The translations under genes were made by a program, and so were the position numbers. DNA of 32,000 nucleotides from Crocosphaera subtropica ATCC 51142 (GTDB lineage: Bacteria; Cyanobacteriota; Cyanobacteriia; Cyanobacteriales; Microcystaceae): assembly GCF_000017845.1 (NCBI RefSeq), contig NC_010546.1:1243382-1275381 (forward strand), given 5' to 3'. The notes under the pieces are model-generated. The model was not told the origin of the DNA, did no database searches, and was given only the letters and a program-made list of their open reading frames with translations. This document shows, in pieces, positions 8,388 through 29,040 of the stretch. Every line of letters starts with the position of its first letter. Positions within the stretch are counted from its first letter, which is position 1.

Positions 8388-9788
8388 ATGAAAAAAGATT
8401 CCGTGGGTGACTCAAAAGATTCGACGGCTCCTCAGCCAGAGGAAAAAAACAGTTCGAGGCTCATGCCCCAAGCTTTGTTGGAGGCCAAACAAAAGCTCAA
8501 GATTAGGCTTCTCCTGTGGGCCGCCTTAGTGGGTATTTTAACAGGAGGAGTCGGAACTTTATTTCAAGTAGCTGTCTCTCAACTGATCCAAGGAAGAGAA
8601 TATTTAATACAGTTGGTCAAAAACGATGCTGTCTTAAACTGGTTAGTGCCAACTGTACTCTCAGCCATCATGGTCTATTTAGCCTTTGGGTTGATGCGTC
8701 GATTAGCCCCTGAAACTGGAGGTAGTGGGATTCCTCAAATTGAAGGGTTTCTTGACGCACTTCTTCCCTTACGCTGGCAATGGGTTCTCCCTGTTAAGTT
8801 TTTAGGGGGACTATTAGCTCTGGGTAGTGGCATGGTATTAGGGCGAGAAGGCCCAACCATTCAAATGGGAGGAAGCATTGGCAAGATGGTGGGGAGTTAC
8901 TTTCGTAGTTCGGGAGAACAAATCAAGATTCTAGTAGCGGCCGGAGCAGGAGCCGGACTAGCTAGTGCCTTTAATGCACCCTTAGCTGGTATTTTGTTTG
9001 TTAACGAAGAGATGCGTCCTAACTTTAAAGATCGCATTAGTTCCTATCGGGCAGTGGCACTGGCCTCAGTGATGGCAACCATTGTCGTAAGAATTTTTCT
9101 CGGTCAAGGTGCTGATATCAAGATCACTAAATTCGAGGCACCCCCCTTAGTGTCACTTCTAGGCTTTGCCCTCTTAGGTATCTGTTTAGGGATTATCGGT
9201 TATGTGTTTAATTTGTGTCTCTTTCGCACCCTTGACTGGTTTTCCAACCAAAGAGGTTTGTCCTATCTGGTTACTGGTTTATATGTCGGTGCTGCGATCG
9301 GTTTCCTGAGTTGGTTATATCCTCCAATTATTGGAGGTGGTGATGAGACAATTTTTTGGGCGTTTAGAAATGAAGCACCTGGCTATGTCTTACTTTCGCT
9401 CTTTTTGCTTCGTTTTGGACTAACGATGTTCTGCTACGGTTGTGGAGTCCCTGGCGGTATCTTTGCACCGATGCTTGCGTTAGCCACGACCTTCAGTATG
9501 GGGGCTACTCAGGAAGTTCATGATTGGTTTGAGTTTCCTTTTCTACTTCCCGAACCAGATGCTTTTGCTGTGGCGGGAATGGGGGCATTGGTAGCTGCCA
9601 CCGTGCGCGCTCCTTTGACGGCAATTGTGTTAACCATTGAGATGACAGATAATTATTTATTAATTTTGCCTTTATTAGTGACCTGTTTAACTTCTACTAT
9701 TACGGCTCATGCTTTAGGCGGAGAGCCGATTTACAGCGTGCTTCTGAAGCGGAACTTAAGACGGACTCAGCTAGAACAATCAAGTTAA
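8388..9788 (+). CDS. clcA: ClC-family H+/Cl- exchange transporter
   Basis: 466 aa with the canonical ClC motifs GSGIPQ, GREGPTIQ, FNAPLAGILFVNEEM and GIFAPML. Confidence 0.9.
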   Translation: MKKDSVGDSKDSTAPQPEEKNSSRLMPQALLEAKQKLKIRLLLWAALVGILTGGVGTLFQVAVSQLIQGREYLIQLVKNDAVLNWLVPTVLSAIMVYLAFGLMRRLAPETGGSGIPQIEGFLDALLPLRWQWVLPVKFLGGLLALGSGMVLGREGPTIQMGGSIGKMVGSYFRSSGEQIKILVAAGAGAGLASAFNAPLAGILFVNEEMRPNFKDRISSYRAVALASVMATIVVRIFLGQGADIKITKFEAPPLVSLLGFALLGICLGIIGYVFNLCLFRTLDWFSNQRGLSYLVTGLYVGAAIGFLSWLYPPIIGGGDETIFWAFRNEAPGYVLLSLFLLRFGLTMFCYGCGVPGGIFAPMLALATTFSMGATQEVHDWFEFPFLLPEPDAFAVAGMGALVAATVRAPLTAIVLTIEMTDNYLLILPLLVTCLTSTITAHALGGEPIYSVLLKRNLRRTQLEQSS

Positions 9789-10635: not shown

Positions 10636-12252
10636 TCAATTAGTTGGTTGCAGAGCTTCGTTCAATTGCTCTTGGGTCAAAGACTGAATTAAATGAAGAG
10701 GGAGCGGATTTTGTCCCATTTGCTGGACAGCAGTATCTGTTAAATAAGGCTCAAATTCCTGTTGTTGATTTAAGTAAAGATTGAAAAAAGCTAAGCTCAG
10801 ACTTTTGAGATAAGAATAAGCTAAATCTCTTCCTTCTCCGACAATAAAATCAGGTAAATTATCTCCCCCTGTCAAAAAAGATAAATGAGTTCCATTTTTA
10901 ACTAAAATTAAATATTTATCTTCTTTTTCAACATCAGCAAAAGGAGAAATTTGTTCAGGTAAAGGAGGGGCAAAAATATCTGAACTTCCGGCAATAAACA
11001 TCATAGGAACTGAGATATTATTAATACCTTGATTACCAAAAGCGGGATTAGTAACAGGATTAATTGCAATAACAGCTTTGATTCTTGGATCTTCAAGTTC
11101 AGGTAAAGGAGGAGCATTTGTTATTCCTTGACATTGCCAAAGTAAGGCTGGATTTAAGTTAATTACGTCAGGATTATCTAACTTAGCACATTCTTGTTTT
11201 AAATACTCCCATCGTACATCGGCACCACCTGTTGCTGTTGCTGTATATCCTCCTAAAGATTGACCCAAAATACCGACATTTTTTAAGTTTAATTGACCTT
11301 GAAAAGTTGGATCGGATTGTTCTTTTTCTTCTAAGGTATCTAAAGCGAGAGTAACATCTTTGGGTTGATCCATCCAAGCATTAGGATTAGGAAAAGTATC
11401 TAACCCTTGTAAAGCATCTTTCATTCTTTGGGCATCACTTTCAGGAAAGTTAATTCCTACAGTAGCAAAGCCATGAGAAGCCAAATGTTCGGCTACATAA
11501 CGTAAACCTTGAAAATCAGAATTTAAGCCAGGAGTAATAACAATTGTGGGCGCAGGTTTAGACAAGTTTTGAGGTAAATAAACAAAGATAGTTAAGGGAT
11601 CTTCATTAGGGCGAGGAATGGTTATTGTTTCCGAAGTCCAAATGATTTGTCCAGCTTTAGATAAGTCAGATAAGTTAACAGAAGAAGCAGTTGATGCTTC
11701 TGTTTCAGTTTGACTATTTAACCAATTAAAAATACGCTCTGTTGATTGATATAAGTGATCAGCTTCATTAATCGTATTACGAATCGTTTCTAAATTAACA
11801 GCTAAGGTTGAACTATCATAATTTTTAATAACATCAATAATTTTCAATCCATCTGGATTGGCAGCTGCGAGTAAAATAGCTCCCTGTAAAAAGGGTTGAC
11901 TCTGATCTGAAGGGGCATTAATTGCTCGACTCAATTGCTTGACAATTTCTTTGCCGAAATTGGTGTTGAAAAACTCGAAAGCTTCTACTTCATTAACTGG
12001 GAAAGATTTATTGAGTAAAGCCCTGAATTTTGTCAATTCTTCAGGGGTGAAATGCTTAGTATAGAAAGCAAAGTCAGGTGTTATTGTTCCATCTTTAGCA
12101 AAAACCCCTAAACTGTCCACAGAAACATCAAATTCTCCTAATGGGGCAATAGAAAATGTGATTTTTTCTGCTGCAAAAATTGGGAAAGATGGCAACAGTG
12201 ATAGTATTCCTAGTCCTAAAGTTAATCCGAATCTTTGAGTTAAATTAATCAT
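10636..12252 (-). CDS. Exported DUF1400-domain alpha/beta hydrolase
   Basis: 538 aa with a signal peptide (...FPIFAAEK) and an N-terminal region resembling the cyanobacterial DUF1400. Nucleophile elbow GQSLGG, with candidate Asp in AGSSDIF and candidate His in NGTHLSF. Confidence 0.8.
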   Translation of the reverse strand: MINLTQRFGLTLGLGILSLLPSFPIFAAEKITFSIAPLGEFDVSVDSLGVFAKDGTITPDFAFYTKHFTPEELTKFRALLNKSFPVNEVEAFEFFNTNFGKEIVKQLSRAINAPSDQSQPFLQGAILLAAANPDGLKIIDVIKNYDSSTLAVNLETIRNTINEADHLYQSTERIFNWLNSQTETEASTASSVNLSDLSKAGQIIWTSETITIPRPNEDPLTIFVYLPQNLSKPAPTIVITPGLNSDFQGLRYVAEHLASHGFATVGINFPESDAQRMKDALQGLDTFPNPNAWMDQPKDVTLALDTLEEKEQSDPTFQGQLNLKNVGILGQSLGGYTATATGGADVRWEYLKQECAKLDNPDVINLNPALLWQCQGITNAPPLPELEDPRIKAVIAINPVTNPAFGNQGINNISVPMMFIAGSSDIFAPPLPEQISPFADVEKEDKYLILVKNGTHLSFLTGGDNLPDFIVGEGRDLAYSYLKSLSLAFFNLYLNQQQEFEPYLTDTAVQQMGQNPLPLHLIQSLTQEQLNEALQPTN

Positions 12253-12287
12253 GTTAATATTGCTAAATCGTAAAAGATTAATAATTA

Positions 12288-12325
12288 AAGTGAGTTTAAG
12301 CTTAGAAAGCTAGTTAAACTCACTT
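12288..12325 (-). terminator. Strong hairpin terminating the sulfatase operon
   Basis: Perfect 12-bp stem AAGTGAGTTTAA / TTAAACTCACTT with a 14-nt loop, 32 nt downstream of the stop at 12357. It is followed on the minus strand by TAATTATTAATCTTTT. Confidence 0.6.
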
Positions 12326-12356
12326 GGTTGCGAAGATTTATTAAATACAAAAAAGA

Positions 12357-13016
12357 TTACGGAGCAGGAACGACACGATAGTAAACTCCATTAGCCCCGG
12401 CTGCTGGACTAAACCAAGTTCCGTTGCAATTATAAAAATTTCCTCCATCAGATTGACTAGAAACACATCCTGACGGAAGACTGGGATAGATAGCCCCTAC
12501 AGTATAAGCACTTCCAGATGTCTCTTCGGGTGCAGAATTATTGGTTGCTGTGGCACTAGCTGCTCCGATCGCTGCTCCTGCTGCTGCTGCCCCGGCAGCA
12601 GCCCAACCACCGCAATTATAACAATCAGAGCCGTAGTGATTGACCACAGCAGGGGGATGATAAGTAGAGTAGGTTCCACCATGATAATCGCCATACCCAA
12701 CGCCCCCGTTAACAGTGGTTCCATAAGGACTCGTAGCACGCCAAGAACCACCGCCCCCTGAGGCTGTACCACCCCTAGCTCCGGTACCACTCCAAGAGCC
12801 ATCACCCCCTGAAGCGGTGCCACCCCTAGCTCCGGTACCACTCCAGGAACCACCGCCCCCTGAAGCGGTGCCACCTCGAAATCCAGTACCACTCCAAGAC
12901 CCACCGCCTCCTGAGACTCTACCCCCTCTAGCTCCTGCGTGGAAGAAAGCAGCAGAGGGATCGCAAGTAAGAGTCATAGAAAGAAGCGTAATCAAGCTAA
13001 TCACTAAGGTTTTCAT
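12357..13016 (-). CDS. Exported Gly-rich tandem-repeat protein with a Cys/aromatic C-terminal region
   Basis: 219 aa with a signal peptide (MKTLVISLITLLSMTLTC...SAA). Four 17-aa units RGGTASGGGGSWSGTGA are followed by ...CYNCGGW..., an Ala-rich stretch, and ...FYNCNGTWFSPAAGANGVYYRVVPAP. Of the three open frames here, this is the only one with a signal peptide and operon context. Confidence 0.7.
   Translation of the reverse strand: MKTLVISLITLLSMTLTCDPSAAFFHAGARGGRVSGGGGSWSGTGFRGGTASGGGGSWSGTGARGGTASGGDGSWSGTGARGGTASGGGGSWRATSPYGTTVNGGVGYGDYHGGTYSTYHPPAVVNHYGSDCYNCGGWAAAGAAAAGAAIGAASATATNNSAPEETSGSAYTVGAIYPSLPSGCVSSQSDGGNFYNCNGTWFSPAAGANGVYYRVVPAP
12738..12929 (-). repeat. 51-nt tandem repeat (about 4 copies) encoding the RGGTASGGGGSWSGTGA units
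   Basis: Residues 30-93 of the 219-aa protein. The GC-rich repeat keeps several reading frames open. Confidence 0.8.
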
Positions 13017-13027
13017 TATTAATTCTC

Positions 13028-13831
13028 CTATTCAGATTGAGTTGGTGATGTTGTATCCGTGGAAGTAGAATTTGGGGGTTCAGGGGGTGCAAAAGGAATG
13101 GTGGTAGCCTTTTTTGCTTCGGAAGAGGTAAAATCCCCCGCAGAAACCGGAATATCTAGCTGCCAATCAGAAAACTCCACTTGATGCCGTAGTCTTGAAG
13201 GATCATCTCGATAGACGGCCCGAATCATGCGAGGTAGCTTATCTTCAGCCCCAATCCAAATTTGGGCAAAAATAGTGTCATTGGCCACCGCGACAATATC
13301 CGTTGTGGTTCCCCCCACCACGCTAGATTGACCTACAACAAAGGCAATTTGTAGTCCTTCTCTGATATCTTGATAGGGATTGCTAACAATGACATCAGTG
13401 AAAGGAAAATAGATGGCCGCAGAATCATAGGCTAATTTTAAGGCAGCATCAAGGGTTGCTGGCGCATCAGCCACCGCCACCAGATTTTCAGCAGGAGAGT
13501 AGGCAGTGATTGTCTGACCATCGTAATAAAATTCGTTAGCTGGCCCATCTCCAGGGGTAATCACTTTTAATTGATTGGGTCGTTGTAAGGTAACTTCTGA
13601 AATCGTGGTGTAAACCAGAGGAGGGCCAAGGCGACTGGGACTTTCGTAGGTGCTGACGGCAGTAAAAGTCATTGAATCGGTAGCCGTTAGGCGATCACTC
13701 ATGGACTTGATTAAGGCGATCGCTTGAGGTTCAATTTCACTCTTTGTTTGGGCGGTTATTCTCTGGGGAATAGCCAGTAAACTAACACTGACTAAGGAGA
13801 AAAGAAGAGATTTTTTCCATAAACTAGACAT
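13028..13831 (-). CDS. Exported DUF2092-like (LolA-fold-like) periplasmic protein
   Basis: 267 aa with a signal peptide ending ITAQ. The pattern ...LQRPNQLKV...YYDGQTITAYSP...YFPFTDVI...FSDWQLD... matches my recollection of DUF2092. The C-terminal tail is Pro/Ser/Thr-rich. Confidence 0.7.
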   Translation of the reverse strand: MSSLWKKSLLFSLVSVSLLAIPQRITAQTKSEIEPQAIALIKSMSDRLTATDSMTFTAVSTYESPSRLGPPLVYTTISEVTLQRPNQLKVITPGDGPANEFYYDGQTITAYSPAENLVAVADAPATLDAALKLAYDSAAIYFPFTDVIVSNPYQDIREGLQIAFVVGQSSVVGGTTTDIVAVANDTIFAQIWIGAEDKLPRMIRAVYRDDPSRLRHQVEFSDWQLDIPVSAGDFTSSEAKKATTIPFAPPEPPNSTSTDTTSPTQSE

Positions 13832-13887
13832 CTTGTTACAATCTCCTGAGACTTGTTTTTTGTGAAATGAATAGTCAGTAGGGACGA

Positions 13888-15219
13888 TTAGGAAACACCC
13901 TTAACTGGGGGAGGGGACCAGATTTTCTCTAAGACGGGTGCTTTAGGGGAATATAACCTCATAATGAGATTGAAATGATCTGACGGTGAGGGCAACCAGT
14001 TCCCTTCCTTATTTTCTCCAGGAGACTCATGGGAGATGAAAATATCGAGAGAACCATCGTCATTAAAGTTCAAATTATCGCGATCGCCGATGGCATAACG
14101 GTTAAGAGGATTATCGACAAAAAATTGTTGGTTATTGTACATCGTAATCGACCAAAAGGCATTAACAGGGGGGATTTCTTCTGATTCAAAATGAATGACA
14201 TAATCATGTTCCCCACTCAAGGGGTTGCCCTCCTTGTCAACTCGTGTCAAGGGATAGATGGCATCTTCAGGCAAATTTGCTCCTAACCCAACCCAGGCGA
14301 CTCCTGCACGGTGTAAATAGTCTGTTCCGTAGCTTCCCAAGTCATAGGTCATTAACCAGTTATTTTTGACCTCTGCTTTAGGGGTTTGGCCGGCTTTGAC
14401 CACTTGTTCATGGGCAACAGAAATACTACGCTCAAGTCCTTTGATGATTACGGGATCAAGTGCTTTTAAATCAAAGTTTTCATCGGGGATTAAACCAATT
14501 TCTGCCAATTTTTTCCCTATTTCTTGGTCCTTAAGGGCAGGAGGATTCGCTGTCATCAACCTACACATTCGAGTGAAAAAAGAAGCCGCATCGAGGTTTT
14601 TGACCTGTTCAACGGGGGGAGTTTGGGTATCAATTCCGTCCGTAACCGGGACATGGGTGGGCGGTTGATAAGATTTCTCCCATTGACTCAACGGGGTTAG
14701 CTGATATAGGTCTTGGATGGCGTGAACTGCTTCATAATCGGCTTTTCCGTTCGTCTGTGTTCGTCCAATAATCCAAACCATGGAGGTTGGTGACTGAATT
14801 TTCTGTACTCCTTCAGGAAGTTCTCCCGTCCAATTGGGCGGTAAAATGGCAAAATCCCCTTTTTTTGTGCCTGTCGTCCGTTTACCGGGGGAAGCAAAAA
14901 TATTTGTCCAAGCGTCTAGCATGGGCATTAAATAGTAACGTCCTCCTGTATCGGGAACACTCAAAATGATGGGTTCAGCCGAAAGATCAAGCCAAGCAGA
15001 GGAATATAACGTATCGGCATTGGGACTCACCACTGCTGTAAAGGAAGCATCAGGAAAGGCTTTTAAGTGGGCAAATTGGTTAATCGGGGCTTTAAATCCT
15101 TGGGAGGAAGAGACGGCCGTTGTGATTGCTTGGGTAATATCCATTAAAATTAAAGGATAACCGAAGATATAGGCTTCAACGCCTAAGTTAAAAGCTTGTT
15201 CTTCTGATAAAGGGGTCAT
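13888..15219 (-). CDS. DUF1254/DUF1214 two-domain protein
   Basis: 443 aa. The N-terminal half has YIFGYPL...NADTLYSSAWLDL...PIILSVPDTGGRYYLMPMLDAWTN (DUF1254 pattern). The C-terminal half has YGTDYLHRAGVAWVGLGANLPEDAIY...PPVNAFWSITMY...NRYAIGDRD...NWLPSP...NLIMRLYSP (DUF1214 pattern). No signal peptide is present in this frame. Confidence 0.85.
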   Translation of the reverse strand: MTPLSEEQAFNLGVEAYIFGYPLILMDITQAITTAVSSSQGFKAPINQFAHLKAFPDASFTAVVSPNADTLYSSAWLDLSAEPIILSVPDTGGRYYLMPMLDAWTNIFASPGKRTTGTKKGDFAILPPNWTGELPEGVQKIQSPTSMVWIIGRTQTNGKADYEAVHAIQDLYQLTPLSQWEKSYQPPTHVPVTDGIDTQTPPVEQVKNLDAASFFTRMCRLMTANPPALKDQEIGKKLAEIGLIPDENFDLKALDPVIIKGLERSISVAHEQVVKAGQTPKAEVKNNWLMTYDLGSYGTDYLHRAGVAWVGLGANLPEDAIYPLTRVDKEGNPLSGEHDYVIHFESEEIPPVNAFWSITMYNNQQFFVDNPLNRYAIGDRDNLNFNDDGSLDIFISHESPGENKEGNWLPSPSDHFNLIMRLYSPKAPVLEKIWSPPPVKGVS

Positions 15220-15376
15220 GGTTATAAAACCTCAGGTTTTTGATTAAAAAGAAAAATTGGCTGTTAATAAGAAGCAAATCAGGTTAAAAATTGAGGGATT
15301 TAACAACAACTCCGATAAAACTGACGAAACCAATAATTAACAAATTAGAAATAACAGAATATTTTGGCTGTTTTAC

Positions 15377-17731
15377 CTACTGTCGGGCCATAATTGTCCG
15401 CATTTCTGCTTCATGGTCATGAATTAAATCGCCACTGACATCCACAACAACAGTATAAATTTTACCCGTAAACTTAAACGGCGGTTCATAATCAGGAGTG
15501 ACAGGAGAACCAGGGGCAAAACCACAGGTTAAACCGCTACTTACTCCTATATTGAGAGGAATGGTTACCGAAACGTCCGTTTGTCCGACTAATTTTTCGT
15601 CAATATACAATTGAGCGCGACCTGGCGCACCTTTTCCTGTGGCGAGATCCACTTGGCCAGTGGGTTCAAACTCAAAGCGTAACTGATGACGACCTTCTGG
15701 GATCGATTCCTTTGATTGAAGATGATAGAGCGATCGCGCTAAATAATTATGAACCCAGTGCAGTTTGCCCCCTTTGACATAGAAAGCATACCCCCCATCA
15801 TTACCTCCATGAGCGAGTAAAACCCCTTCTGCGCCCCCTTGAGGAATCTCCACATCGGCCGTGATACTATGGAGACGATTTAGCACTCTGACGGCACTAT
15901 TTGAGGGAATTTCTTGAGTGTTAGGATAGTAAGTATAGCGAGTTCGAGCCTCCGCAATTTGAGGTCGTTCTTCTGCAAGACGCTGTACACCACGGCCATC
16001 AACGGGTAACACATTATATTTGCCGGCTTCTACATACCAAGTTGCCACCATTTCGATGAGTTTTGCCCGATTATCTGCTGCAATATTGTGATTTTCGGCA
16101 AAATCTTCAGCAATGTGATACAGTTCCCAGTGATGGGCATCCAGTTCGGTTAGGGTATCTTTAGCAATAGGAACGCCAAAGGGTTTCCCTGCTTCGGTGA
16201 AAGAAGGACCGGGCCAAGGACACACAGCACGCCAACCGTCATAATAGAGGGAACGATGCCCCATCATCTCAAAATATTGGGTAATATGCTTACTTGGTGC
16301 TTCGGCATTATCTAAGGTATGGGCAAAACTCACCCCTTCAATGGGGGATTGTGTCACCCCTCTAATGGTGGTTGGGGGGTCAATTTCCAGTAATTCCAGC
16401 ACCGTTGGCACTAAATCAATGGCATGGGCGTACTGGGTCCGAATTTCGCCCTTTGCCTTAATCCCTTGGGGCCAATGCACAATTAAGGGATCGCTAATAC
16501 CCCCTCGGTAGGTTTCTCGTTTCCAACGTCGGAAAGGGGTATTACCTGCCCAAGTCCAACCCCAAGGATAATGATTAAACGTTTCGGGTCCTCCGAGTTT
16601 GTCAATTTCTTTGAGATTATCTTCGAGGGTTTCAGGGACATTATTAAAAAAGAGGGTTTCGTTGATCGAGCCTTGCAGTCCCCCTTCTGCACTCGCTCCA
16701 TTATCGGAAATGACCATAATAATCGTATTCTCAAATTCCCCAATATTTTTGAGAAAATCCAATAAACGACCGATATGATAATCTGTATGGGTGAAAAATC
16801 CCGCAAAAACCTCCATCATGCGAGCATAAAGCCTTTTTTCATCGGCTGAGAGGGAATCCCAGTGAGGAACATCGGGATCATGACGAGACAGTTCAGCATT
16901 TTGGGGAACAATGCCCATTTCTTTCTGACGGGCAAATACTTTCTCTCGGTACGCTTCCCAACCGTCATCAAATTGTCCGGCGTAAGCGTCTGCCCACTCT
17001 TTGGGGACATGATGGGGGGCGTGCATCGCACCAGGACAAAAATACATGAAAAAGGGCTTATCGGGGGCAATTTGTTTAGAATCAGCAATAAAGCTTATGG
17101 CTTTGTCCGCAATATCTGCGTTAAAGTGATAACCTTCTTCTGGTGTTTTGTCAGGATGGACTTGGTGGTTATCATAGACGAGAGCGGGGTAGTATTGATG
17201 GGTATCTCCCCCTAAAAAGCCGTAATATCGCTCAAAACCCCGTCCCAACGGCCAGCGATCGTAGGGACCGGCGGCCGACAGTTGATCGGCAGGGGTTAAA
17301 TGCCATTTGCCGATCGCATAGGTATTATAACCTTTTTGTAGCAATATTTCTGATAAAAAGCCATTTTCAAAGGGAATGTTGCCATTACTGCCTGGATAGC
17401 CCGTTGAACCTTCTGTAATGCAGGCCATAGCGTTGGAATGGTGATTACGTCCCGTCATAATACAGGAACGAGAGGGAGAACATAAGGCTGTCGTATGTAG
17501 ATTGTTATAACGCAAACCATTAGCAGCTAAGGCATCTAAATTAGGGGTTTTTATGGGACTTCCATAACACCCAAATTGTCCAAATCCAGTATCATCGAGG
17601 ACAATAAACAAAACGTTGGGGGTGCCTTTTTTTGCCCGTAATGGTTCTGGCCAAGCAGGGCTAGATTGATCTACAGTTCGTCCGATAACCCCAGAAAAAG
17701 CGGTTCCAGGTTTATATTCTTGCAAAGCCAT
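15377..17731 (-). CDS. Cys-type arylsulfatase (AtsA-like, about 780-aa class)
   Basis: 784 aa with the sulfatase signature LCSPSRSCIMTGR (C-x-P-x-R) and metal-site residues in FIVLDDTGFG. It has a long C-terminal beta-rich domain and no N-terminal signal peptide. Confidence 0.9.
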   Translation of the reverse strand: MALQEYKPGTAFSGVIGRTVDQSSPAWPEPLRAKKGTPNVLFIVLDDTGFGQFGCYGSPIKTPNLDALAANGLRYNNLHTTALCSPSRSCIMTGRNHHSNAMACITEGSTGYPGSNGNIPFENGFLSEILLQKGYNTYAIGKWHLTPADQLSAAGPYDRWPLGRGFERYYGFLGGDTHQYYPALVYDNHQVHPDKTPEEGYHFNADIADKAISFIADSKQIAPDKPFFMYFCPGAMHAPHHVPKEWADAYAGQFDDGWEAYREKVFARQKEMGIVPQNAELSRHDPDVPHWDSLSADEKRLYARMMEVFAGFFTHTDYHIGRLLDFLKNIGEFENTIIMVISDNGASAEGGLQGSINETLFFNNVPETLEDNLKEIDKLGGPETFNHYPWGWTWAGNTPFRRWKRETYRGGISDPLIVHWPQGIKAKGEIRTQYAHAIDLVPTVLELLEIDPPTTIRGVTQSPIEGVSFAHTLDNAEAPSKHITQYFEMMGHRSLYYDGWRAVCPWPGPSFTEAGKPFGVPIAKDTLTELDAHHWELYHIAEDFAENHNIAADNRAKLIEMVATWYVEAGKYNVLPVDGRGVQRLAEERPQIAEARTRYTYYPNTQEIPSNSAVRVLNRLHSITADVEIPQGGAEGVLLAHGGNDGGYAFYVKGGKLHWVHNYLARSLYHLQSKESIPEGRHQLRFEFEPTGQVDLATGKGAPGRAQLYIDEKLVGQTDVSVTIPLNIGVSSGLTCGFAPGSPVTPDYEPPFKFTGKIYTVVVDVSGDLIHDHEAEMRTIMARQ

Positions 17732-19028: not shown

Positions 19029-19403
19029 ATGATTTTAAAATCATTATTATGCTCAACTTTATCTTCCATGGCTATTATAACTAGCCTTGGTATTTTTCCC
19101 TTAAACGTCAACGCTCAAACTAATTCACAGGCTAATTGTGTTCAAGAACCCCAGTCTTATATTTCCCCTGAACTCTTAGCAACGATGGCCTATCGGGAGT
19201 CTTTTAAAAAGGAAGGAATTCCGGGTTATGGTGTCTTAGAAACAGAATTCAGTGCAGGAAATATTACAGCAAAAGACATTGTACAAGCAGCAATAAAAGC
19301 TTGTGTTCTTAGCAATGAATATGGCATCGCTAGTCATGAAAACTACGTTGACGATGTGAAAAGTCAACTTCAATCTATGATCCAAGCTGATAATAGTCGA
19401 TAA
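19029..19403 (+). CDS. Small exported protein of unknown function
   Basis: 124 aa with a signal peptide ending VNA/QT and GAGGAA 9 nt upstream of the ATG. Two Cys residues. No family recognised. Confidence 0.55.
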   Translation: MILKSLLCSTLSSMAIITSLGIFPLNVNAQTNSQANCVQEPQSYISPELLATMAYRESFKKEGIPGYGVLETEFSAGNITAKDIVQAAIKACVLSNEYGIASHENYVDDVKSQLQSMIQADNSR

Positions 19404-19619: not shown

Positions 19620-21902
19620 ATGTTACACAAAATTTTAAAATTTCTTTATTTGAAACCTATAATACAGGGTACTGTTTTAATTAGTTATTATTTGTTTTCC
19701 GCAAATGTACAAGCCAACCCGATAATAACTAAAACTGACCAAGATATTTTTTATGAACCATCAATTTTAGTTATTCCAGAAGATAAACCTTTGGCCAATG
19801 AAGTCGAAGTTAAAAAAGATAGTTTTACGATTTTAGAAAATACCGTTAATTCTAACCAACCTGAGACAACATCTTCTTGTCTTACGTTTACTCCTTTAAC
19901 TAACACTGTCACCCCTAATATATCATCTACTAAAAAGAAGGAAAACGAAATAAAAGCTACCAGTAATTGTGCCACAGATTTGATAGAAATTTCAAATCCT
20001 AAACCATTAAAAGTATTTCAGAATAAAAACTCTGATTTTTCGTTAAATCTTCCAGAAACTTCACCTAAGTCTTCACAAGATTTACCTGTCGTAGAGACAA
20101 CTCAACCCGTTGAAGACAACCGCTGGCATTTTAAATTACAACCTTATGCCACCATTCCCATTAATACCTATGGAACGGTTTCGGCGAGGGGAGAAACGGT
20201 TAGTTATCATTTAAGTTTAGGGGAATTATTAGATACATTAAGAGCAACTGCAAGCGGTCGTTTTGAAGGTTGGAACGGTCGTTGGGGATTTATTATTGAT
20301 GGTTATTTTGCTAGTTTACAAGATATTGGTAATCTGCAAATATCTCGTTCGAGAAACCCTAATCCTATTAATGTTTTAAACTTTTTATTAAATAGAGGAA
20401 TTAATACTAGACTGCAAGAAGTCGTTAATGTCATTGATCAAGAAATTCAAATCGCTAATAATATTCAACAAGTAAGAGAAGCTCAACCTTTTCAAAATTT
20501 AGAACGTCAAGTTCAAGATTTGAAAGTTGTTGTTTCGGAAGATGCCCAAAAACTTCAGGAATTGCAAATTAGATTCCAAGAATTTGAAGATAAAGTAATT
20601 ACAGGTCGTCAACAGATAGAGGTATTAGAAACAAGAGTTGAAGATTTGCAAGACCTTGAATCACAAATTAATACTTTACAGAATTTTAAAACAAACTTCA
20701 TTAATAATATCAATACTGAACAATTTCAAGCATTTCTTGACCTTGATTTTCAAAACTTAAATCAATTAGCAAATCAAGTTAGTAGCATTGAACAAGTAGG
20801 ACAAGAATTAAGACAAACTAGAAATAATTTAGAACGTGCGAGTCAGCGAGTTAAAGAACTACGCTCGCAACGAGATAGTGTAGCTTTAGAAAATGTTGAA
20901 ACCAAGCTAGAAGAAGCCAAAGCATTACTTAATGATGAACTGATTACAGATGAGGAAAAGTTAGAGAGTTTTTTGGACAAACTTGAAGAATTAAAAAACA
21001 TTGAATCAGACATTGACCTAGTGAAAGAAATAGGAATTAATGATATTGAATCTTTAGAAAAAATTATTGCTTTAAGGGTTCAAGATTTACCGATTATTGA
21101 CGATTTACAAGACTTAAACAACCAAATTCAAGAGCTAAATCAACTTACCGATATTAATCAAATTGAACAAAAACTAATACAAACCAGAGATAATTTAGAG
21201 CGTGTTAGTCAACAAGTCAAAGAACTGCGGTCACAACAAGATAGTGAAACTTTGCAAAATCTTGATAGTCAACTCGAACAAGCAAAAGTATTATTAGATC
21301 GAGAAATTCAAGCAGTCAACCAAATTCAAGACTTTCTAGAAAATCAACAACCTCAACAACTTGAAGCAACCATCGGAGCAAGTTTACAATTTGATCAAGG
21401 AATTTATGATTTTGCCCTTAGTTATCATATTGGGGATCTTCCCTCCCATGAATTGCCTGAACAACCTTCTAATCGCAATTTTCCTCTAATTTGGTTTCAA
21501 CCTATTGTGGGGGTTCGCCTTAATGATATTAGTGTTGAAATTGATACAATTAATAGGTTTGAGCTATCAAGTTCTTTGGTTAATATTCAGGGTACGGTTC
21601 AACGAAAATTTGAGCGAGGACGTACTTGGTTTGAACCCTTATTAGGAGGAAAATTCGGTATTCAAATCTCAGATCCCATTACTTTTTGGTTAAGAGGTGA
21701 TGCTTCGGGGTTTGGACTAGCAGGAGAAACAGATATTAGTTGGAACTTATTGTTTGGGTTAGATTGGTGGATTCATCAACAAATTTCATTGCAACTTGGC
21801 TATCATTTCTATGAGATCGACTATAAAACTGGCAATGATAATGACTTTAGATTTGAAGAAAATCTAAACGGACCTTTTGTTTCAGCAACCTTTCATTTTT
21901 AG
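19620..21902 (+). CDS. Exported protein: outer-membrane beta-barrel-like segments interrupted by a long coiled coil
   Basis: 760 aa. Signal peptide ending VQA/NP, then a low-complexity linker (aa 33-166). Beta-like segment aa 167-245 (RWHFKLQPYATIP...GRWGFIIDGYFASL). Heptad-rich Q/E/L region about aa 262-580. Alternating-pattern beta segment aa 581-760 ending ...GPFVSATFHF, with a terminal aromatic Phe as in OMP C-terminal signatures. Confidence 0.7.
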   Translation: MLHKILKFLYLKPIIQGTVLISYYLFSANVQANPIITKTDQDIFYEPSILVIPEDKPLANEVEVKKDSFTILENTVNSNQPETTSSCLTFTPLTNTVTPNISSTKKKENEIKATSNCATDLIEISNPKPLKVFQNKNSDFSLNLPETSPKSSQDLPVVETTQPVEDNRWHFKLQPYATIPINTYGTVSARGETVSYHLSLGELLDTLRATASGRFEGWNGRWGFIIDGYFASLQDIGNLQISRSRNPNPINVLNFLLNRGINTRLQEVVNVIDQEIQIANNIQQVREAQPFQNLERQVQDLKVVVSEDAQKLQELQIRFQEFEDKVITGRQQIEVLETRVEDLQDLESQINTLQNFKTNFINNINTEQFQAFLDLDFQNLNQLANQVSSIEQVGQELRQTRNNLERASQRVKELRSQRDSVALENVETKLEEAKALLNDELITDEEKLESFLDKLEELKNIESDIDLVKEIGINDIESLEKIIALRVQDLPIIDDLQDLNNQIQELNQLTDINQIEQKLIQTRDNLERVSQQVKELRSQQDSETLQNLDSQLEQAKVLLDREIQAVNQIQDFLENQQPQQLEATIGASLQFDQGIYDFALSYHIGDLPSHELPEQPSNRNFPLIWFQPIVGVRLNDISVEIDTINRFELSSSLVNIQGTVQRKFERGRTWFEPLLGGKFGIQISDPITFWLRGDASGFGLAGETDISWNLLFGLDWWIHQQISLQLGYHFYEIDYKTGNDNDFRFEENLNGPFVSATFHF
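20787..21308 (+). repeat. Internal duplication within the coiled-coil region (offset 375 nt, 125 aa)
   Basis: IEQVGQELRQTRNNLERASQRVKELRSQRDSVALENVETKLEEAKALLNDEL (aa 390-441) aligns with IEQKLIQTRDNLERVSQQVKELRSQQDSETLQNLDSQLEQAKVLLDREI (aa 515-563). The similarity is also visible at nucleotide level. Confidence 0.8.
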
Positions 21903-22006: not shown

Positions 22007-22468
22007 TTAAGGAGCAGTAACATCATTATCCCATAGTTCAACTTTAGCCAAAGAACAACTCATGCTATGTTCATTAGCTAATTCATGTATCCATTTTCCC
22101 ATTTGTTGGTTTTGATCATTTCCGCTTAACCAAGTAACACTCAGAAGACTGAGATTGCCTCCTGCAATCGGTTCACAAGTAAATTTTAAATTCCCTGGAG
22201 AGTTCTCAGAAACCCCTGATTGGCACTTCCAACTTTTTGGATCAATGATTAATTTCCAATCACTATCATCTCTGGCTTCAATGAGAATTTTATCTTCTTG
22301 ATCTGAACAAATCCAACTATTCATTTGATCAGCTATATTAGGTAATTCATCTAAATTAGATGGGTTATTTTGTGCTGTTAATTGAGAAGTAGATTGAGCT
22401 AATAAAGTTAAAGGAGATAAAATTAAAAGAATTGTTGTTTTTGTTAAAATCAATGACTTTAATTTCAT
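22007..22468 (-). CDS. Small exported protein of unknown function
   Basis: 153 aa with a signal peptide ending LLA/QS and four Cys residues. No family recognised. Confidence 0.5.
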   Translation of the reverse strand: MKLKSLILTKTTILLILSPLTLLAQSTSQLTAQNNPSNLDELPNIADQMNSWICSDQEDKILIEARDDSDWKLIIDPKSWKCQSGVSENSPGNLKFTCEPIAGGNLSLLSVTWLSGNDQNQQMGKWIHELANEHSMSCSLAKVELWDNDVTAP

Positions 22469-25960: not shown

Positions 25961-26151
25961 ATGTCTACAGCTTATTTTCAAAATCTGATTGAATCAATCG
26001 AAACCTTATTAATTGAAGATCAAGATTATTTATTTGATTTAATCCGTAAAAGACGCATCGAAAAAAGAATCCTGAACTACAAAATAAGATTACCAGTGTT
26101 TTAATATTATTAGCTAAAGATCCTTTTACTCCATCTTTAAAGTCTCATTAA
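25961..26151 (+). pseudogene. Possible scar of a type II toxin-antitoxin pair
   Basis: A 47-codon ORF at 25961-26104 (MSTAYFQNLIESIETLLIEDQDYLFDLIRKRRIEKR...) resembles the N-termini of small cyanobacterial antitoxins. In another frame, 26107-26151 reads LLAKDPFTPSLKSH-stop, which resembles the ...P..P.LK.HKL.G segment of RelE/YafQ-type toxins. Both pieces are short. Confidence 0.3.
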
Positions 26152-26164
26152 ATATTTTAGGAAG

Positions 26165-26842
26165 CTATTTGCGAATTTGGTTATTACGAATATATAAATA
26201 ATTCATGTTGTCATAAGGAAGAATACCAGACCAAATAGTTAATCCTAAAATAACTAATTTATGAATCATTTTATAGTTATCAATAAAATTAGAAATAGAA
26301 TCATTAAAATTATAGTTAATTATTAATAAAATAACGATTCCCATTAAATTGTTTTTGTCATTTTTTAGACTATCGACGCTTTTATTATGATTGTCAAGTC
26401 TCTTTTGTATTTTTTCATCTTGATGAGTTTCTAAATAGTTTTCTACCTCATGTTTAAATACTATATTTTTATTATATTTATATTTTTTTTGTACTTCTGA
26501 TTCAGGATATATATTGATGATCCAATGAATTATATATTGTAGTTCAATCAATAAGTTACTCACTAATATTCTAAACAATTGAGCAAGATGTGAAAGTAAG
26601 AAATATCCTATTATTACTATCATATAAGGAATAAGGTTTATTATTTGTTCATTAATTATTGAAAAATTATCAGATGAAGAAAAACTTTTTATAAAAATTA
26701 AATATTTCTGTATAAATACAAATGTCAAGATATAACCTGTAATAAATGTTAACTGTAAAACCTTACTCCAATTGCTAGTATCTTTATCAAAAATTAGTTT
26801 AAACTGTTCTTTGAGCCAATCTATTATCATATTTTTTCTCAC
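26165..26842 (-). CDS. Very AT-rich orphan polytopic membrane protein
   Basis: 225 aa (GTG at 26842, first ATG at 26830) with four to five hydrophobic segments around a Lys/Asn/Glu-rich loop. Three 60-nt lines I counted gave 13-27% G+C, against 33-55% for two lines counted in glmS. No family recognised. Confidence 0.5.
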   Translation of the reverse strand: MRKNMIIDWLKEQFKLIFDKDTSNWSKVLQLTFITGYILTFVFIQKYLIFIKSFSSSDNFSIINEQIINLIPYMIVIIGYFLLSHLAQLFRILVSNLLIELQYIIHWIINIYPESEVQKKYKYNKNIVFKHEVENYLETHQDEKIQKRLDNHNKSVDSLKNDKNNLMGIVILLIINYNFNDSISNFIDNYKMIHKLVILGLTIWSGILPYDNMNYLYIRNNQIRK

Positions 26843-26888
26843 ATTTGCTTTTATTTATAATCATTATACTTATATTATAAATAATGAA

Positions 26889-26913
26889 GGATAGTATATT
26901 AGTTACACTATCC
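26889..26913 (-). terminator. Weak hairpin downstream of glmS
   Basis: GGATAGT-N11-ACTATCC lies 35 nt after the glmS stop and is followed on the minus strand by TTCATTATTTAT. Confidence 0.3.
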
Positions 26914-26947
26914 ATCGCTATCTAAGCAAAGTTAATTCTAATGAATT

Positions 26948-28834
26948 TTATTCCACTGTAACACTCTTAGCTAAATTCCGAGGTTGATCTACATCTAAAC
27001 CTCTTCTAGCTGCAATATGATAGGCTAATAATTGTAAGGGAATGACGGCAATAATCGGGGATAAAATTTCATCCACATGGGGAACAAATAATAAGTCATC
27101 GAATGTTGATCTCGCTTCATTATCATCAACAGAAGTTACCCCTATTAACCTTGCATCCCTTGCTTTTGCTTCTTGAGCATTGGATAATACTTTATCATGA
27201 ACTTCTCCCGGCATAGCAATAGCAACCACAGGAACTTTCGCATCTAATAAAGCAATGGGCCCGTGTTTCATTTCTCCAGCAGGGTAGCCTTCAGCATGAA
27301 TATAACTGATTTCTTTTAATTTTAAAGCCCCTTCTAAAGCAATGGGAAAATTAACCCCTCTTCCTAAGAAAATAAAGTCCTGGGTTTCGATAAATTCGTG
27401 GGCTAATTCTTCAATTTGTTTTTCTTGTTGACTTAAAATGAGCTCAATTTGATTGGGTAATTCTCTTAACCCTTTAATCAAACTTTCAAACTTTTCTAAA
27501 CTCAACCGTTTACGACGATAAGCTAACTCTAATGCTAAGAAATAAAAGCCCATTAATTGCGCCGTAAAACTCTTAGTAGCCGCCACACCAATTTCTATCC
27601 CTGCTTGGGTATTAATGATACGATCTACCATGTGAGCAAGGGTACTTTCGGGACGATTAGTAATGCCTAAAATTCGGGCATCGTAAGGAAATTCTAAGCC
27701 CATTCTGCGCTGTTTTTCCATCTCCAATGCGGCTAAAGTATCGGCGGTTTCCCCTGACTGTGTGACCCCAACGGTTAAGGTATTAGCTAACATGGGGGCA
27801 GGAGAATAACGAAACTCTGAGGCATATTGCACCATCGTGGGAATACCGGCTAATTGTTCGAGTAAATATTTACCCACGACACTAGCATTCCAACTGGTCC
27901 CACAAGCGACAATTTGAATATAATCGACGTTGTCACATAATTCTGCTGCTAATCCTAGCGCAATGGGGCTTTTTTCTTCCCCATTTTCAATATTCCAGCT
28001 AGGATCTAAATAGGTTTCTAAACAACTTCTTACTACCGAAGGTTGCTCATAAATTTCTTTGAGCATGAAATGACGAAACCCTTGTTTTTCAACGGTGGCA
28101 ATATTCCAATCAAGGGTTCTCGGAAGCTTTCTCAGGCGTTTGAGGTCAAAATCGTAAACTTCTACGCCGAGGGCAGTTAAACGGGCAATTTCGCCGTTTT
28201 CCAGAGATAAAACCGCATGGGTATGAGGCACAACCGCCGTGACATCGGAGGCGCAGAAAAATTCCCCTTGTCCAAAGCCGATAATTAAAGGGGCCTGATG
28301 CCGTGCGACAATAATTTCATCCGGGTAGTCTGCACAGATAACGGCGATCGCAAAAGACCCATTGAGACGATGAACAGCTTTTTGTACTGCTTCTAATAAC
28401 CCATCATAATCAACGGTTTCAGGAAGATATTGAGCAATTAAATGGGGAATTACTTCGGTATCAGTTTCTGAGAGAAATTCACACCCTTTCTCTATCAATT
28501 CTTCCCGTAATTCTTGGTGATTTTCAATAATGCCATTTTGCACCACTGCCACCCGTTTGCTACTATCTCTGTGAGGGTGGGCGTTATGTTCTTCTGGTTT
28601 GCCGTGGGTGGCCCAGCGAGTGTGGCCGATACCCATTTGTGAGGGGTTAACCTCCCGTTCTAATTTTTCTCTGAGGTTATAGAGTTTGCCTTTTGCCCTC
28701 GTACAGTGTACCGTACCTTCTAAAACTGTAGCAATACCGGCTGAATCATAGCCTCTGTATTCTAATCGTTCTAAACCGTCGATTAATACCTCGGTTGCTG
28801 TTTTGGTGCCAATATAGCCAACAATTCCACACAT
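26948..28834 (-). CDS. glmS: Glutamine--fructose-6-phosphate aminotransferase
   Basis: Full-length GlmS. The start is set at the ATG at 28834, giving MCGIVGYIG, because the class II amidotransferase needs Cys as the first mature residue. The 17 extra N-terminal codons in the ORF track are rejected. Two SIS domains are present and the protein ends ...NLAKSVTVE. Confidence 0.95.
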   Translation of the reverse strand: MCGIVGYIGTKTATEVLIDGLERLEYRGYDSAGIATVLEGTVHCTRAKGKLYNLREKLEREVNPSQMGIGHTRWATHGKPEEHNAHPHRDSSKRVAVVQNGIIENHQELREELIEKGCEFLSETDTEVIPHLIAQYLPETVDYDGLLEAVQKAVHRLNGSFAIAVICADYPDEIIVARHQAPLIIGFGQGEFFCASDVTAVVPHTHAVLSLENGEIARLTALGVEVYDFDLKRLRKLPRTLDWNIATVEKQGFRHFMLKEIYEQPSVVRSCLETYLDPSWNIENGEEKSPIALGLAAELCDNVDYIQIVACGTSWNASVVGKYLLEQLAGIPTMVQYASEFRYSPAPMLANTLTVGVTQSGETADTLAALEMEKQRRMGLEFPYDARILGITNRPESTLAHMVDRIINTQAGIEIGVAATKSFTAQLMGFYFLALELAYRRKRLSLEKFESLIKGLRELPNQIELILSQQEKQIEELAHEFIETQDFIFLGRGVNFPIALEGALKLKEISYIHAEGYPAGEMKHGPIALLDAKVPVVAIAMPGEVHDKVLSNAQEAKARDARLIGVTSVDDNEARSTFDDLLFVPHVDEILSPIIAVIPLQLLAYHIAARRGLDVDQPRNLAKSVTVE

Positions 28835-29040
28835 AATTTTATATATATTGATGATTAATTTATTAATTGTCGATGATGATGCCAAAAATGACCAGGGTTT
28901 TATGATTTATTGATGACTTATCTTAGGTCATAAGTTGTCTAGACGTGGGTTACCCCTTTTCTGTTTCATTCAATCAATGTACGGTTTGTCAAGACTAAAT
29001 AAATTATAAAATCATCTAATATATGGATATATGGATCTAT

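Follow-up and report, generated by a model that had tools for sequence, protein, structure and literature searches.

The subject of this analysis is a gene of Crocosphaera subtropica ATCC 51142, an open reading frame at 19620..21902 on the plus strand of a window of 32,000 nucleotides (contig NC_010546.1, positions 1,243,382 to 1,275,381; the window is the whole stretch of DNA that was analysed, and all coordinates below refer to it). Its product was found to be identical (100%) to ACB50607.1, UniProt B1WVM0, of the same strain (P0001 and P0404 in our numbering of proteins). An initial annotation made from the sequence had described an outer-membrane beta-barrel-like protein split by a long coiled coil. 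The layout that it gave was recovered: a signal peptide is followed by a disordered linker, a beta segment of 80 amino acids (aa) in which RWHFKLQPY starts at aa 168, a helical region of 334 aa and a second beta segment of 181 aa that ends in GPFVSATFHF. The features of the gene are listed here with the evidence for each, where pLDDT is the predicted local distance difference test of AlphaFold2.

19620..21902, plus strand: the whole barrel gene, 760 aa and a stop codon, with an ATG start (open reading frame list).
19620..19715, plus strand: Sec-type signal peptide, aa 1-32, MLHKILKFLYLKPIIQGTVLISYYLFSANVQA with NP following, recognised by eye; the N-terminus aligns with those of homologues.
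19716..20114, plus strand: N-terminal linker, aa 33-165, predicted to be disordered, with two conserved Cys motifs (pLDDT, homologue alignment).
19872..19907, plus strand: motif SSCLTFTPLTNT with C87, which is invariant in the alignment of coil-bearing homologues; F90, P92, L93 and N95 are nearly so.
19956..19985, plus strand: motif ATSNCATDLI with C117; S115, C117, D120 and L121 are invariant in the same alignment.
20115..20354, plus strand: N-terminal barrel part, aa 166-245 (pLDDT 91-98; 61-99% identity to homologues).
20352..20405, plus strand: collar at the start of the insert, aa 245-262, RSRNPNPINVLNFLLNRGIN, conserved in coil-bearing proteins.
20355..21356, plus strand: inserted acidic coiled-coil region, aa 246-579, 334 aa (heptad statistic; all-helical in AlphaFold2; not in coil-less homologues).
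20715..21044, plus strand: 110-aa block in the centre of the insert, aa 366-475, the presumed hairpin tip, in the C. subtropica lineage only (homologue alignment).
20745..20927, plus strand: first copy of a duplication, aa 376-436 (direct repeat in DNA and protein).
21111..21293, plus strand: second copy, aa 498-558, the ancestral module QKLxQTRDNLE...ELRxxxDSExLQNLE, conserved in all coil-bearing homologues.
21240..21356, plus strand: conserved end of the insert, aa 541-579, DSETLQNLD...AKVLLDREIQ...FLENQQPQQ (alignment; pLDDT 86-92).
21357..21899, plus strand: C-terminal barrel part, aa 580-760 (pLDDT mostly 83-98; 64-98% identity to homologues; sub-threshold match to PF13505).
21426..21485, plus strand: Pro-rich 20-aa segment between strands, aa 603-622, HIGDLPSHELPEQPSNRNFP, conserved (pLDDT 92-93).
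21870..21899, plus strand: C-terminal strand end resembling a beta-signal, GPFVSATFHF, conserved.

For the full protein, an AlphaFold2 model was built on an alignment of 107 sequences. Five strands were assigned by DSSP before the insert (169-178, 182-189, 192-199, 207-219 and 222-245) and seven after it (580-602, 623-650, 655-682, 687-696, 704-719, 722-737 and 743-759), with pLDDT above 90 in the beta parts. The significant PDB matches of this model were outer-membrane barrels and chains of the beta-barrel assembly machinery (BAM) complex. When the two beta parts of the query (aa 163-262 and 580-760) were fused and aligned with coil-less homologues, AlphaFold returned the same strands with a pLDDT of 90.1 and a predicted template modelling (TM) score of 0.82. 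In a Foldseek search of the PDB, the fused model aligned along its entire length with closed barrels, namely Pla, OmpT, pOmpT, OpcA and Legionella Dot/Icm porin I (TM 0.50-0.57, probability 1.0; 0.45-0.53 for OpcA). The structure prediction, proposed as a check in the initial annotation, therefore came out in its favour, and both beta parts are predicted to close one antiparallel barrel.

The C-terminus fits such a barrel. G751, A756, F758, H759 and F760 are invariant among the coil-bearing homologues, G751 and F758 also in the alignment of the wider family, and a C-terminal Phe, as in the aromatic beta-signal recognised by BAM, was found family-wide. The Pro-rich segment 603-622 is likewise strongly marked (L612, P613, P616, S617, N618, R619 and P622 are invariant) and would sit opposite the coil, on the presumed periplasmic side. 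As for the identity of the barrel, aa 645-744 matched the nearest Pfam model, PF13505 (OMP_b-brl; clan MBB), with 18.3 bits in the full protein and 20.9 bits in the fused one, below the gathering threshold of 28.7 bits, and remote members of the family scored 24-25 bits. The barrel thus appears to be related to this model at best and not to be a member. No Pfam or NCBIfam model recognised the barrel family at threshold, and no relative was found in PDB sequence searches with the full protein or the barrel profile. The best structural matches of the fused barrel, the omptins OmpT and Pla together with OpcA (TM 0.45-0.54), are 10-stranded and vase-shaped and share its long protruding strands. 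However, they have no long helical loop insert, and the likeness is one of fold only: the query gave no Pfam match to the omptin family and the profile search of the PDB returned nothing of it; the catalytic Asp and His residues were not mapped.

The region between the two beta parts has a different character. In aa 250-578 there are 4 Gly and 3 Pro per 329 residues, Q, L and E each make up 12-15%, and the net charge is -31. Leu, Ile, Val or Met occupied a fraction of 0.62 of the heptad a and d positions in the best register, compared to 0.41 +/- 0.036 in 200 shuffles (maximum 0.52; z ~5.8), and the hydrophobicity power lay at a period of 3.5 in the coil and of 2 in both beta parts. The middle helical region is therefore more than low-complexity composition, and the Q/E/L-rich heptad region claimed at the outset is borne out. 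The inserts of eight further homologues are heptad-periodic as well (z 3.2-7.0) and net acidic (-7 to -36). AlphaFold2 placed helices at 250-574, with pLDDT of 80-92 in the segments at the base of the coil (~250-330 and ~510-580). Both ends of the insert are strongly conserved, with the consensus RxxPNxINxLNxLL at the start and DSExLQxLE...AK...F..N at the end. In 14 coil-bearing proteins, R245, P247, N248, L253, N254, L256, L257 and N262 of the collar are invariant; at the other junction L545, Q546, L548 and F572 are invariant, and D541, A555, N575 and Q579 nearly so.

The comparison with homologues indicates how this arrangement came about. The 14 coil-bearing relatives are 61-99% identical to the query in the beta parts, while their coils are 32-84% identical and variable in length. 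When a fused-barrel profile was made from nine coil-bearing relatives with the coil excised, it retrieved proteins from cyanobacteria, 260-440 aa long, that align in one piece with 100% of the fused query at ~50% identity. These include proteins of Gloeobacter morelensis (P0173), Pseudanabaena PCC 6802 (P0184, named 'outer membrane protein'), Chroococcus, Aphanothece and Chroococcopsis (P0161); members of the type of P0173, P0184 and P0161 are 44-55% identical to the query over both beta parts. The same profile also reached relatives of ~25% identity in a metagenome-assembled genome (MAG) of Thermodesulfobacteriota. In a joint alignment, the stretch from DGY (229) to QG (594) measured 365 aa in the query and 235-387 aa among the coil-bearing proteins as a whole, as opposed to 26-31 aa in the close coil-less homologues from cyanobacteria; spacings between these ranges came from truncated sequences only. 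The coil-less members share with the query the beta parts, the N-terminal extension, the C-terminal F and the gene neighbourhood, and differ in having 26-31 aa where the query has 365; they are likewise uncharacterised.

These data support the reading that each beta part is one half of a barrel whose sequence runs uninterrupted in other proteins, and that the coil is an insertion of 334 aa into a loop between neighbouring strands. Both points had been proposed in the initial annotation, as had the survey of homologues with and without the insert, whose outcome contradicts the reading of the protein as a soluble coiled coil.

More than 200 proteins, clustered at 90%, share the coil arrangement; they belong to Crocosphaera, Gloeothece, Microcystis, Pannus, Snowella and some members of Synechocystis, and the clade with the expanded loop also takes in Cyanothece BG0011. 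Full-length coil-bearing relatives have 576-785 aa. The protein is conserved both in nitrogen-fixing Crocosphaera and in Microcystis, a bloom former that contributes well over a hundred near-identical metagenome sequence clusters. Against 1.84 billion representatives, the barrel profile gave 5641 matches at E<=1e-3 and 344 at E<=1e-30; as this profile came from the whole-sequence alignment, the coil columns drop out of it. A long insert was seen in only about 8 of the 150 best representatives.

The site of the insert was compared across ~240 family members aligned to the barrel hidden Markov model. Long insertions occur at two sites, after query position ~240, which is the coil site and the main insertion hot spot of the family, and after ~189. 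At the coil site, other lineages carry inserts of 33-67 aa, several of them visibly helical; Snowella P0217 has a 143-aa insert with the same base motifs, and P0219 a 262-aa coil of different sequence. Since the site carries such varied inserts across lineages, it behaves like a variable surface loop. Non-helical inserts rich in Gly, Pro and Val were observed at the coil site of P0203 and P0240. At the second hot spot (window ~20184-20195), inserts of 28-119 aa were seen in P0199, P0203, P0204, P0207, P0221, P0227 and P0240; Xenococcus PCC 7305 belongs to the lineage concerned.

The C-terminal Phe of known barrels faces the periplasm. In both AlphaFold2 runs seven strands lie between the insert and this residue, and the tight turns of 2-4 residues (NG at 220-221, 683-686 and 720-721) are on the side of the C-terminus. 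Long strands of 23-28 aa (222-245, 580-602, 623-650 and 655-682) flank the coil and the turn at 651-654 and form a protruding sheet, which in omptins, OpcA and OmpX is extracellular only. It makes most sense to regard strands 182-189 and 192-199 as the outer end of a long first hairpin, which would explain the hot spot at ~189. The barrel would then have 10 strands with the coil in loop 2; a count of 12 strands would put the coil in loop 3, and the parity is equal. Because of strand parity and the protruding sheet, the models place the coil quite probably on the extracellular side. In this respect the initial annotation is to be amended, as it had left the coil equally free to face either side of the outer membrane.

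A coil on the periplasmic side of the same architecture is the alternative that survives best, although we consider it unlikely. Such a coil would serve as a strut or tether and fix how far the outer membrane lies from the peptidoglycan or the inner membrane, like Lpp, OmpM/SlpA or TolC. Cyanobacteria are without Lpp and have a wide periplasm and a thick peptidoglycan, and a hairpin of 14-24 nm would be of about the right length. TolC carries long antiparallel helical hairpins between its barrel strands, and is thus one precedent for a topology of which the initial annotation had known no characterised case. The query resembles it in the helical hairpins spliced between outer-membrane strands and is predicted to form a single-chain barrel, whereas the TolC barrel is made of three protomers and its helices are periplasmic and tunnel-forming; the Pfam scan found no OEP repeats (PF02321) in the query. 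The tethers OmpM and SlpA combine a barrel with a long periplasmic coiled coil in envelopes of the Terrabacteria type, according to the accounts in PMC10628300 and PMC9388160. The coils of OmpM, SlpA and the porins of cyanobacteria with a surface-layer homology (SLH) domain are N-terminal to the barrel, periplasmic, trimeric and SLH-capped. In contrast, the coil of the query is nested inside the barrel sequence and predicted to be extracellular, and Pfam and NCBIfam scans found no SLH or other peptidoglycan-binding domain in the protein. Besides this, a periplasmic coil is disfavoured by the seven strands between coil and C-terminal Phe in two independent predictions, by the coil topping the four-stranded protruding sheet with the tight turns on the opposite side, and by the site being the main variable-length loop of the family.

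The length of the insert, 334 aa in the C. subtropica protein, varies from 143 to 360 aa across the coil-bearing clade. As the two strands that it connects are neighbours, the insert has to double back on itself. P0012-P0014 have the shortest complete inserts (~205 aa), which match the query from 246 to ~346 and from ~476 to 579; we infer from this that each arm of the conserved core has ~95 residues and, with a rise of 1.48 angstrom for each of them, a length of ~14 nm. The 110-aa block at the centre was present in P0002 and P0003 and missing from P0004-P0014, and 105 of its 110 residues were missing from P0015 and P0018. Some length changes are paired between the arms in a way that fits a hairpin: P0011 has gained 46 and 42 residues at a roughly mirrored position and P0015 37 and 37. 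An in-frame duplication was also detected, with copies of 183 nucleotides that are 72% identical at an offset of 366 nucleotides (DNA repeat finder); at the protein level the identity is 58% over 57 aa (E 2e-20 in a pairwise comparison). Tandem Repeats Finder reported nothing on the coil beyond a trivial 12-nucleotide repeat. The insert thus appears to lengthen through duplication of helical modules. The conserved C-arm module of P0007 (aa 422-470) just passes the Pfam model DUF7902 (PF25472; 26.4 versus 26 bits). The match is weaker in P0005 and absent from the query, and helical modules of this kind from cyanobacteria may have been the source of the DUF7902 model.

Taken together, we favour the reading that the gene encodes an outer-membrane barrel with the coil in a loop, most likely as a surface stalk, and assign to it a probability of roughly 0.6. 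The protein would be exported by Sec and assembled into the outer membrane by BAM. The family plan would comprise a signal peptide, a disordered periplasmic extension (with a Cys pair in cyanobacteria) and a barrel of ~260 aa and 10-12 strands, four of which would stick out of the membrane, a feature shared with omptins and OpcA. Within one unicellular or colonial clade the loop at the tip of one protruding hairpin (aa 245 to 580) would have expanded in place into an antiparallel two-arm coiled coil of 15-25 nm. During barrel assembly this loop would be threaded out, and the stalk would fold outside the cell and project from the surface as a loop-borne passenger like that of the Hop (type Vf) proteins. 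Prediction and comparison show that the barrel has homologues, where the insertion lies, that it is helical and heptad-periodic, that it grew by duplication and that the neighbouring genes are conserved; the hairpin geometry, the extracellular exposure and the export route we infer from the models and alignments described above. Our preferred guess at its role is that the stalk, as a spacer or an anchor, could keep mucilage, a surface layer or a partner protein a fixed distance away from the outer membrane, and it might work with the products of the conserved neighbour genes.

Several observations speak against a simple surface stalk. The closure of the barrel, the number of its strands (10 or 12) and the side assigned to the coil are judged from secondary-structure strings, from parity and from fold matches with only moderate TM scores (~0.5). 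The middle of the coil is poorly predicted by AlphaFold2, with pLDDT below 50 at 332-389 and 478-493. Insertions in one arm, of 57 residues in P0018, 51 in P0007 and 21 in P0005, are not explained by a simple two-helix hairpin. The extra residues of the Microcystis proteins are 19-aa repeats with Pro-containing capping boxes, so that side hairpins or helix-turn-helix arrays may take the place of a continuous coil in parts of some inserts. The segment 603-622 is unusually long for a periplasmic turn, and if it crossed the lumen the parity argument would break. Finally, no paper on this protein or the barrel family was found in the literature.

To our knowledge, a loop-borne helical passenger placed by a single-chain barrel was previously known only from the Hop proteins of Helicobacter. 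The Hop adhesins BabA, SabA and HopQ, for which a type Vf has been proposed, have a barrel that is interrupted by a passenger in a loop (Coppens et al. 2018, as reported in PMC9289746); according to the same source, the barrel has 8 strands and the passenger lies between strands 1 and 2. They are therefore a second precedent for the topology that had been taken to be without one. As far as that account goes, the query shares with them a single chain and a barrel interrupted by a large, mainly helical, loop-borne domain with no separate translocator, with the surface exposure of the query deduced from the models. In the query, however, the insert comes after five DSSP strands (3 or 5 membrane crossings) and before seven more, the passenger is a plain coiled coil without a head domain, the host is a cyanobacterium and the barrel family is unrelated. 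Pfam scans at E<=1 or E<=10 gave no match to the Helicobacter outer-membrane protein family (HP_OMP). The query thus appears to share the interrupted-barrel principle of the Hop proteins without being a member of their family.

If the surface stalk is real, the protein would be the second, unrelated example after Hop of a passenger exported from within the barrel's own sequence, and the coil would make it a demanding substrate for BAM; the natural coil-less orthologues could serve as controls in a clean system for the study of loop-passenger export. A long acidic stalk at the surface would also be a candidate mucilage or S-layer anchor, colony factor, cation binder or phage receptor. The widest version of the proposal is a second, independently evolved class of type Vf-like self-export, in cyanobacteria, in which a 10-12-stranded barrel of an ancient family passes an acidic coiled coil of 200-360 aa outwards through one of its loops. 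Fibrils of 15-25 nm would then space or anchor the mucilage, surface layer or colony matrix of Microcystis, Crocosphaera and Synechocystis cells, and the barrel would belong, with DUF2092, DUF1254/DUF1214, the DUF1400 esterase, the sulfatase and MscS, to an envelope module older than the cyanobacterial radiation. We put this forward tentatively and regard it in this full form as rather doubtful.

At the N-terminus, the signal peptide was recognised from K4, K7 and K12, a hydrophobic core and the site VQA-NP after A32, which are conserved in the homologue alignment. The RefSeq record WP_243397386.1 has 736 aa compared to the 760 aa of GenBank ACB50607.1 (a difference of window 19620-19691); its start drops the basic n-region and half of the hydrophobic core of the signal peptide. 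The 760-aa start is preferred because the N-termini of homologues align with it. The linker that follows is rich in Ser, Thr, Pro and Asn and is predicted to be disordered (pLDDT below 50 at aa 25-154), in agreement with the low-complexity linker of the initial annotation. It is probably located in the periplasm. Its identity among homologues is 23-81%, and coil-less homologues have an N-terminal extension of a comparable kind. The motif SSCLTFTPLTNT with C87 also occurs in the coil-less P0134, P0135 and P0161. In general, the two Cys motifs (SC..FTPLTN and TS.CA.DL) are common to the coil-less cyanobacterial homologues, and Gloeobacter is without them. C87 and C117 may pair in a disulfide loop in the periplasm or be part of a binding motif. 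C87 was dropped as a candidate lipobox cysteine, as it lies 55 residues downstream of the signal-peptide cleavage site.

The surroundings of the barrel gene were compared at 19 non-redundant loci, counting genes within 10 kb of it. In the window the recurring neighbours form a set at 10636-17731 on the minus strand, listed here with further recurring neighbours:

10636..12252, minus strand: DUF1400 protein with a cutinase/PETase-like alpha/beta-hydrolase (Pfam; weak PDB matches to cutinases and PET hydrolases), 10/19 loci.
12357..13016, minus strand: 219-aa protein with no Pfam match, 4/19 loci.
13028..13831, minus strand: DUF2092 predicted periplasmic protein (Pfam E 3.6e-63), 6/19 loci.
13888..15219, minus strand: DUF1254/DUF1214 protein (Pfam), 8/19 loci including Thermodesulfobacteriota.
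15377..17731, minus strand: sulfatase (Pfam E 5e-65), 10/19 loci.
Recurring neighbour: MscS-type channel, 8/19 loci.
Recurring neighbour: 157-aa protein, 6/19 loci.
Recurring neighbour: solute-binding protein, 5/19 loci.

The same set surrounds the coil-less genes of Gloeobacter, Pseudanabaena and Chroococcopsis, and the Thermodesulfobacteriota MAG keeps a part of it (DUF2092 and DUF1254/DUF1214). Altogether the neighbourhood was followed through loci L001, L003-L007, L009, L010, L013, L016, L020 and L022, from Gloeobacter to Microcystis. The DUF2092 gene is adjacent to the barrel gene in Pseudanabaena and the Thermodesulfobacteriota MAG, and one gene lies between them in Gloeobacter. In Chroococcopsis (L005) the order is the gene of the 157-aa protein, the coil-less barrel gene and DUF1400; in Pannus (L016) and Microcystis (L001) a coil-bearing gene occupies the same slot, with the gene of the 157-aa protein upstream and DUF1400 downstream. 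As coil-less and coil-bearing genes share one slot, the coil appears to have arisen in place in an orthologue, in a clade of the Chroococcales/Microcystaceae type. Judged from this synteny, the barrel seems to be part of an old envelope module, and the context is silent on the role of the coil. The PDB relatives of the neighbours are structural-genomics entries, such as the uncharacterised VPA0106 and VPA0735 for the DUF1254/DUF1214 protein, or, weakly, cutinases, and no paper linking these families was found in the literature. Directly beside the barrel gene lie two small open reading frames with signal-peptide-like N-termini, at 19029-19403 (plus strand, 124 aa) and 22007-22468 (minus strand, 153 aa), whose products gave no Pfam match. 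The 124-aa open reading frame recurs beside the barrel gene in L009, L012 and L022.

The neighbourhood bears on a further explanation of the coil, namely that it is no rigid stalk but a flexible array of amphipathic helices, similar to apolipoproteins, which would bind polymers or hydrophobic material on the cell surface and feed a pathway encoded by the neighbours (the cutinase-like esterase, the sulfatase, DUF2092, the solute-binding protein and MscS). An esterase and DUF2092 are indeed part of the cross-phylum neighbourhood, but the neighbourhood is equally kept around coil-less genes and thus speaks for the barrel and not for the coil. Sub-threshold matches to Apolipoprotein (PF01442, 32 bits) and HsbA (PF12296, 28 bits) were obtained in the coils of P0377, P0378 and P0376. 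They are far below the cut-offs of 90 and 33.5 bits and are expected of helical low-complexity sequence, and the query has none of them. FadL was among the fold matches, but its alignments reached TM scores of just 0.2-0.3, and a FadL-like transporter was dropped as an identity for the barrel. While the Pro-punctuated 19-aa repeats of Microcystis would suit such an array, the coil of the query has 3 Pro per 329 aa and a clear heptad periodicity. We therefore consider a flexible binding array slightly less likely even than the periplasmic tether.

Least of all do the data suit a soluble, cytoplasmic coiled-coil protein of the SMC, ParA or Rad50 type, to which the public names and the weak similarity of the coil to the NCBIfam models of Rad50 and SbcC would point and which, given a signal peptide, a C-terminal Phe, two barrel-homologous beta parts and no ATPase domain, can practically be dismissed.

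The public names themselves, 'chromosome partitioning protein ParA' and 'chromosome segregation ATPase(-like)', were found on P0018, P0216, P0377 and many Microcystis entries, in total on hundreds of database entries. In the query no Pfam family was found at E<=1, and this covers P-loop, ParA, SMC head and other ATPase families. The names are therefore best regarded as annotation errors, which apparently stem from coiled-coil similarity, in a barrel family of thousands that is without a Pfam or NCBIfam model. The Rad50 and SbcC matches had 10-21 bits against cut-offs of 700-1000, in the coil only; like weak matches to SnoaL, HrpB2, Exonuc_VII_L, Apolipoprotein, HsbA, DUF3130 and, in P0007, DUF7902, they were rejected as artefacts of helical composition.

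Elsewhere in the window, overlapping open reading frames on the minus strand match the TnsD C-terminus (PF15978, 24775-25080) and TniQ (PF06527, 25028-25558). They lie just downstream of glmS (GATase and SIS domains, 26948-28885, minus strand), and the GC content at 26001-27000 is 23%. The arrangement has the appearance of a Tn7-like element, or of what is left of one, at the attachment site next to glmS, with tnsD/tniQ possibly frameshifted. Towards the other end of the window, the gene at 3243-5162 (minus strand) encodes a GGDEF-EAL protein with an N-terminal ethylene-receptor-like domain (ETR1_N), and near it are genes for a ZnuA/ABC pair (793-2788), an LptF/LptG permease (6411-7616) and a ClC channel (8388-9788).

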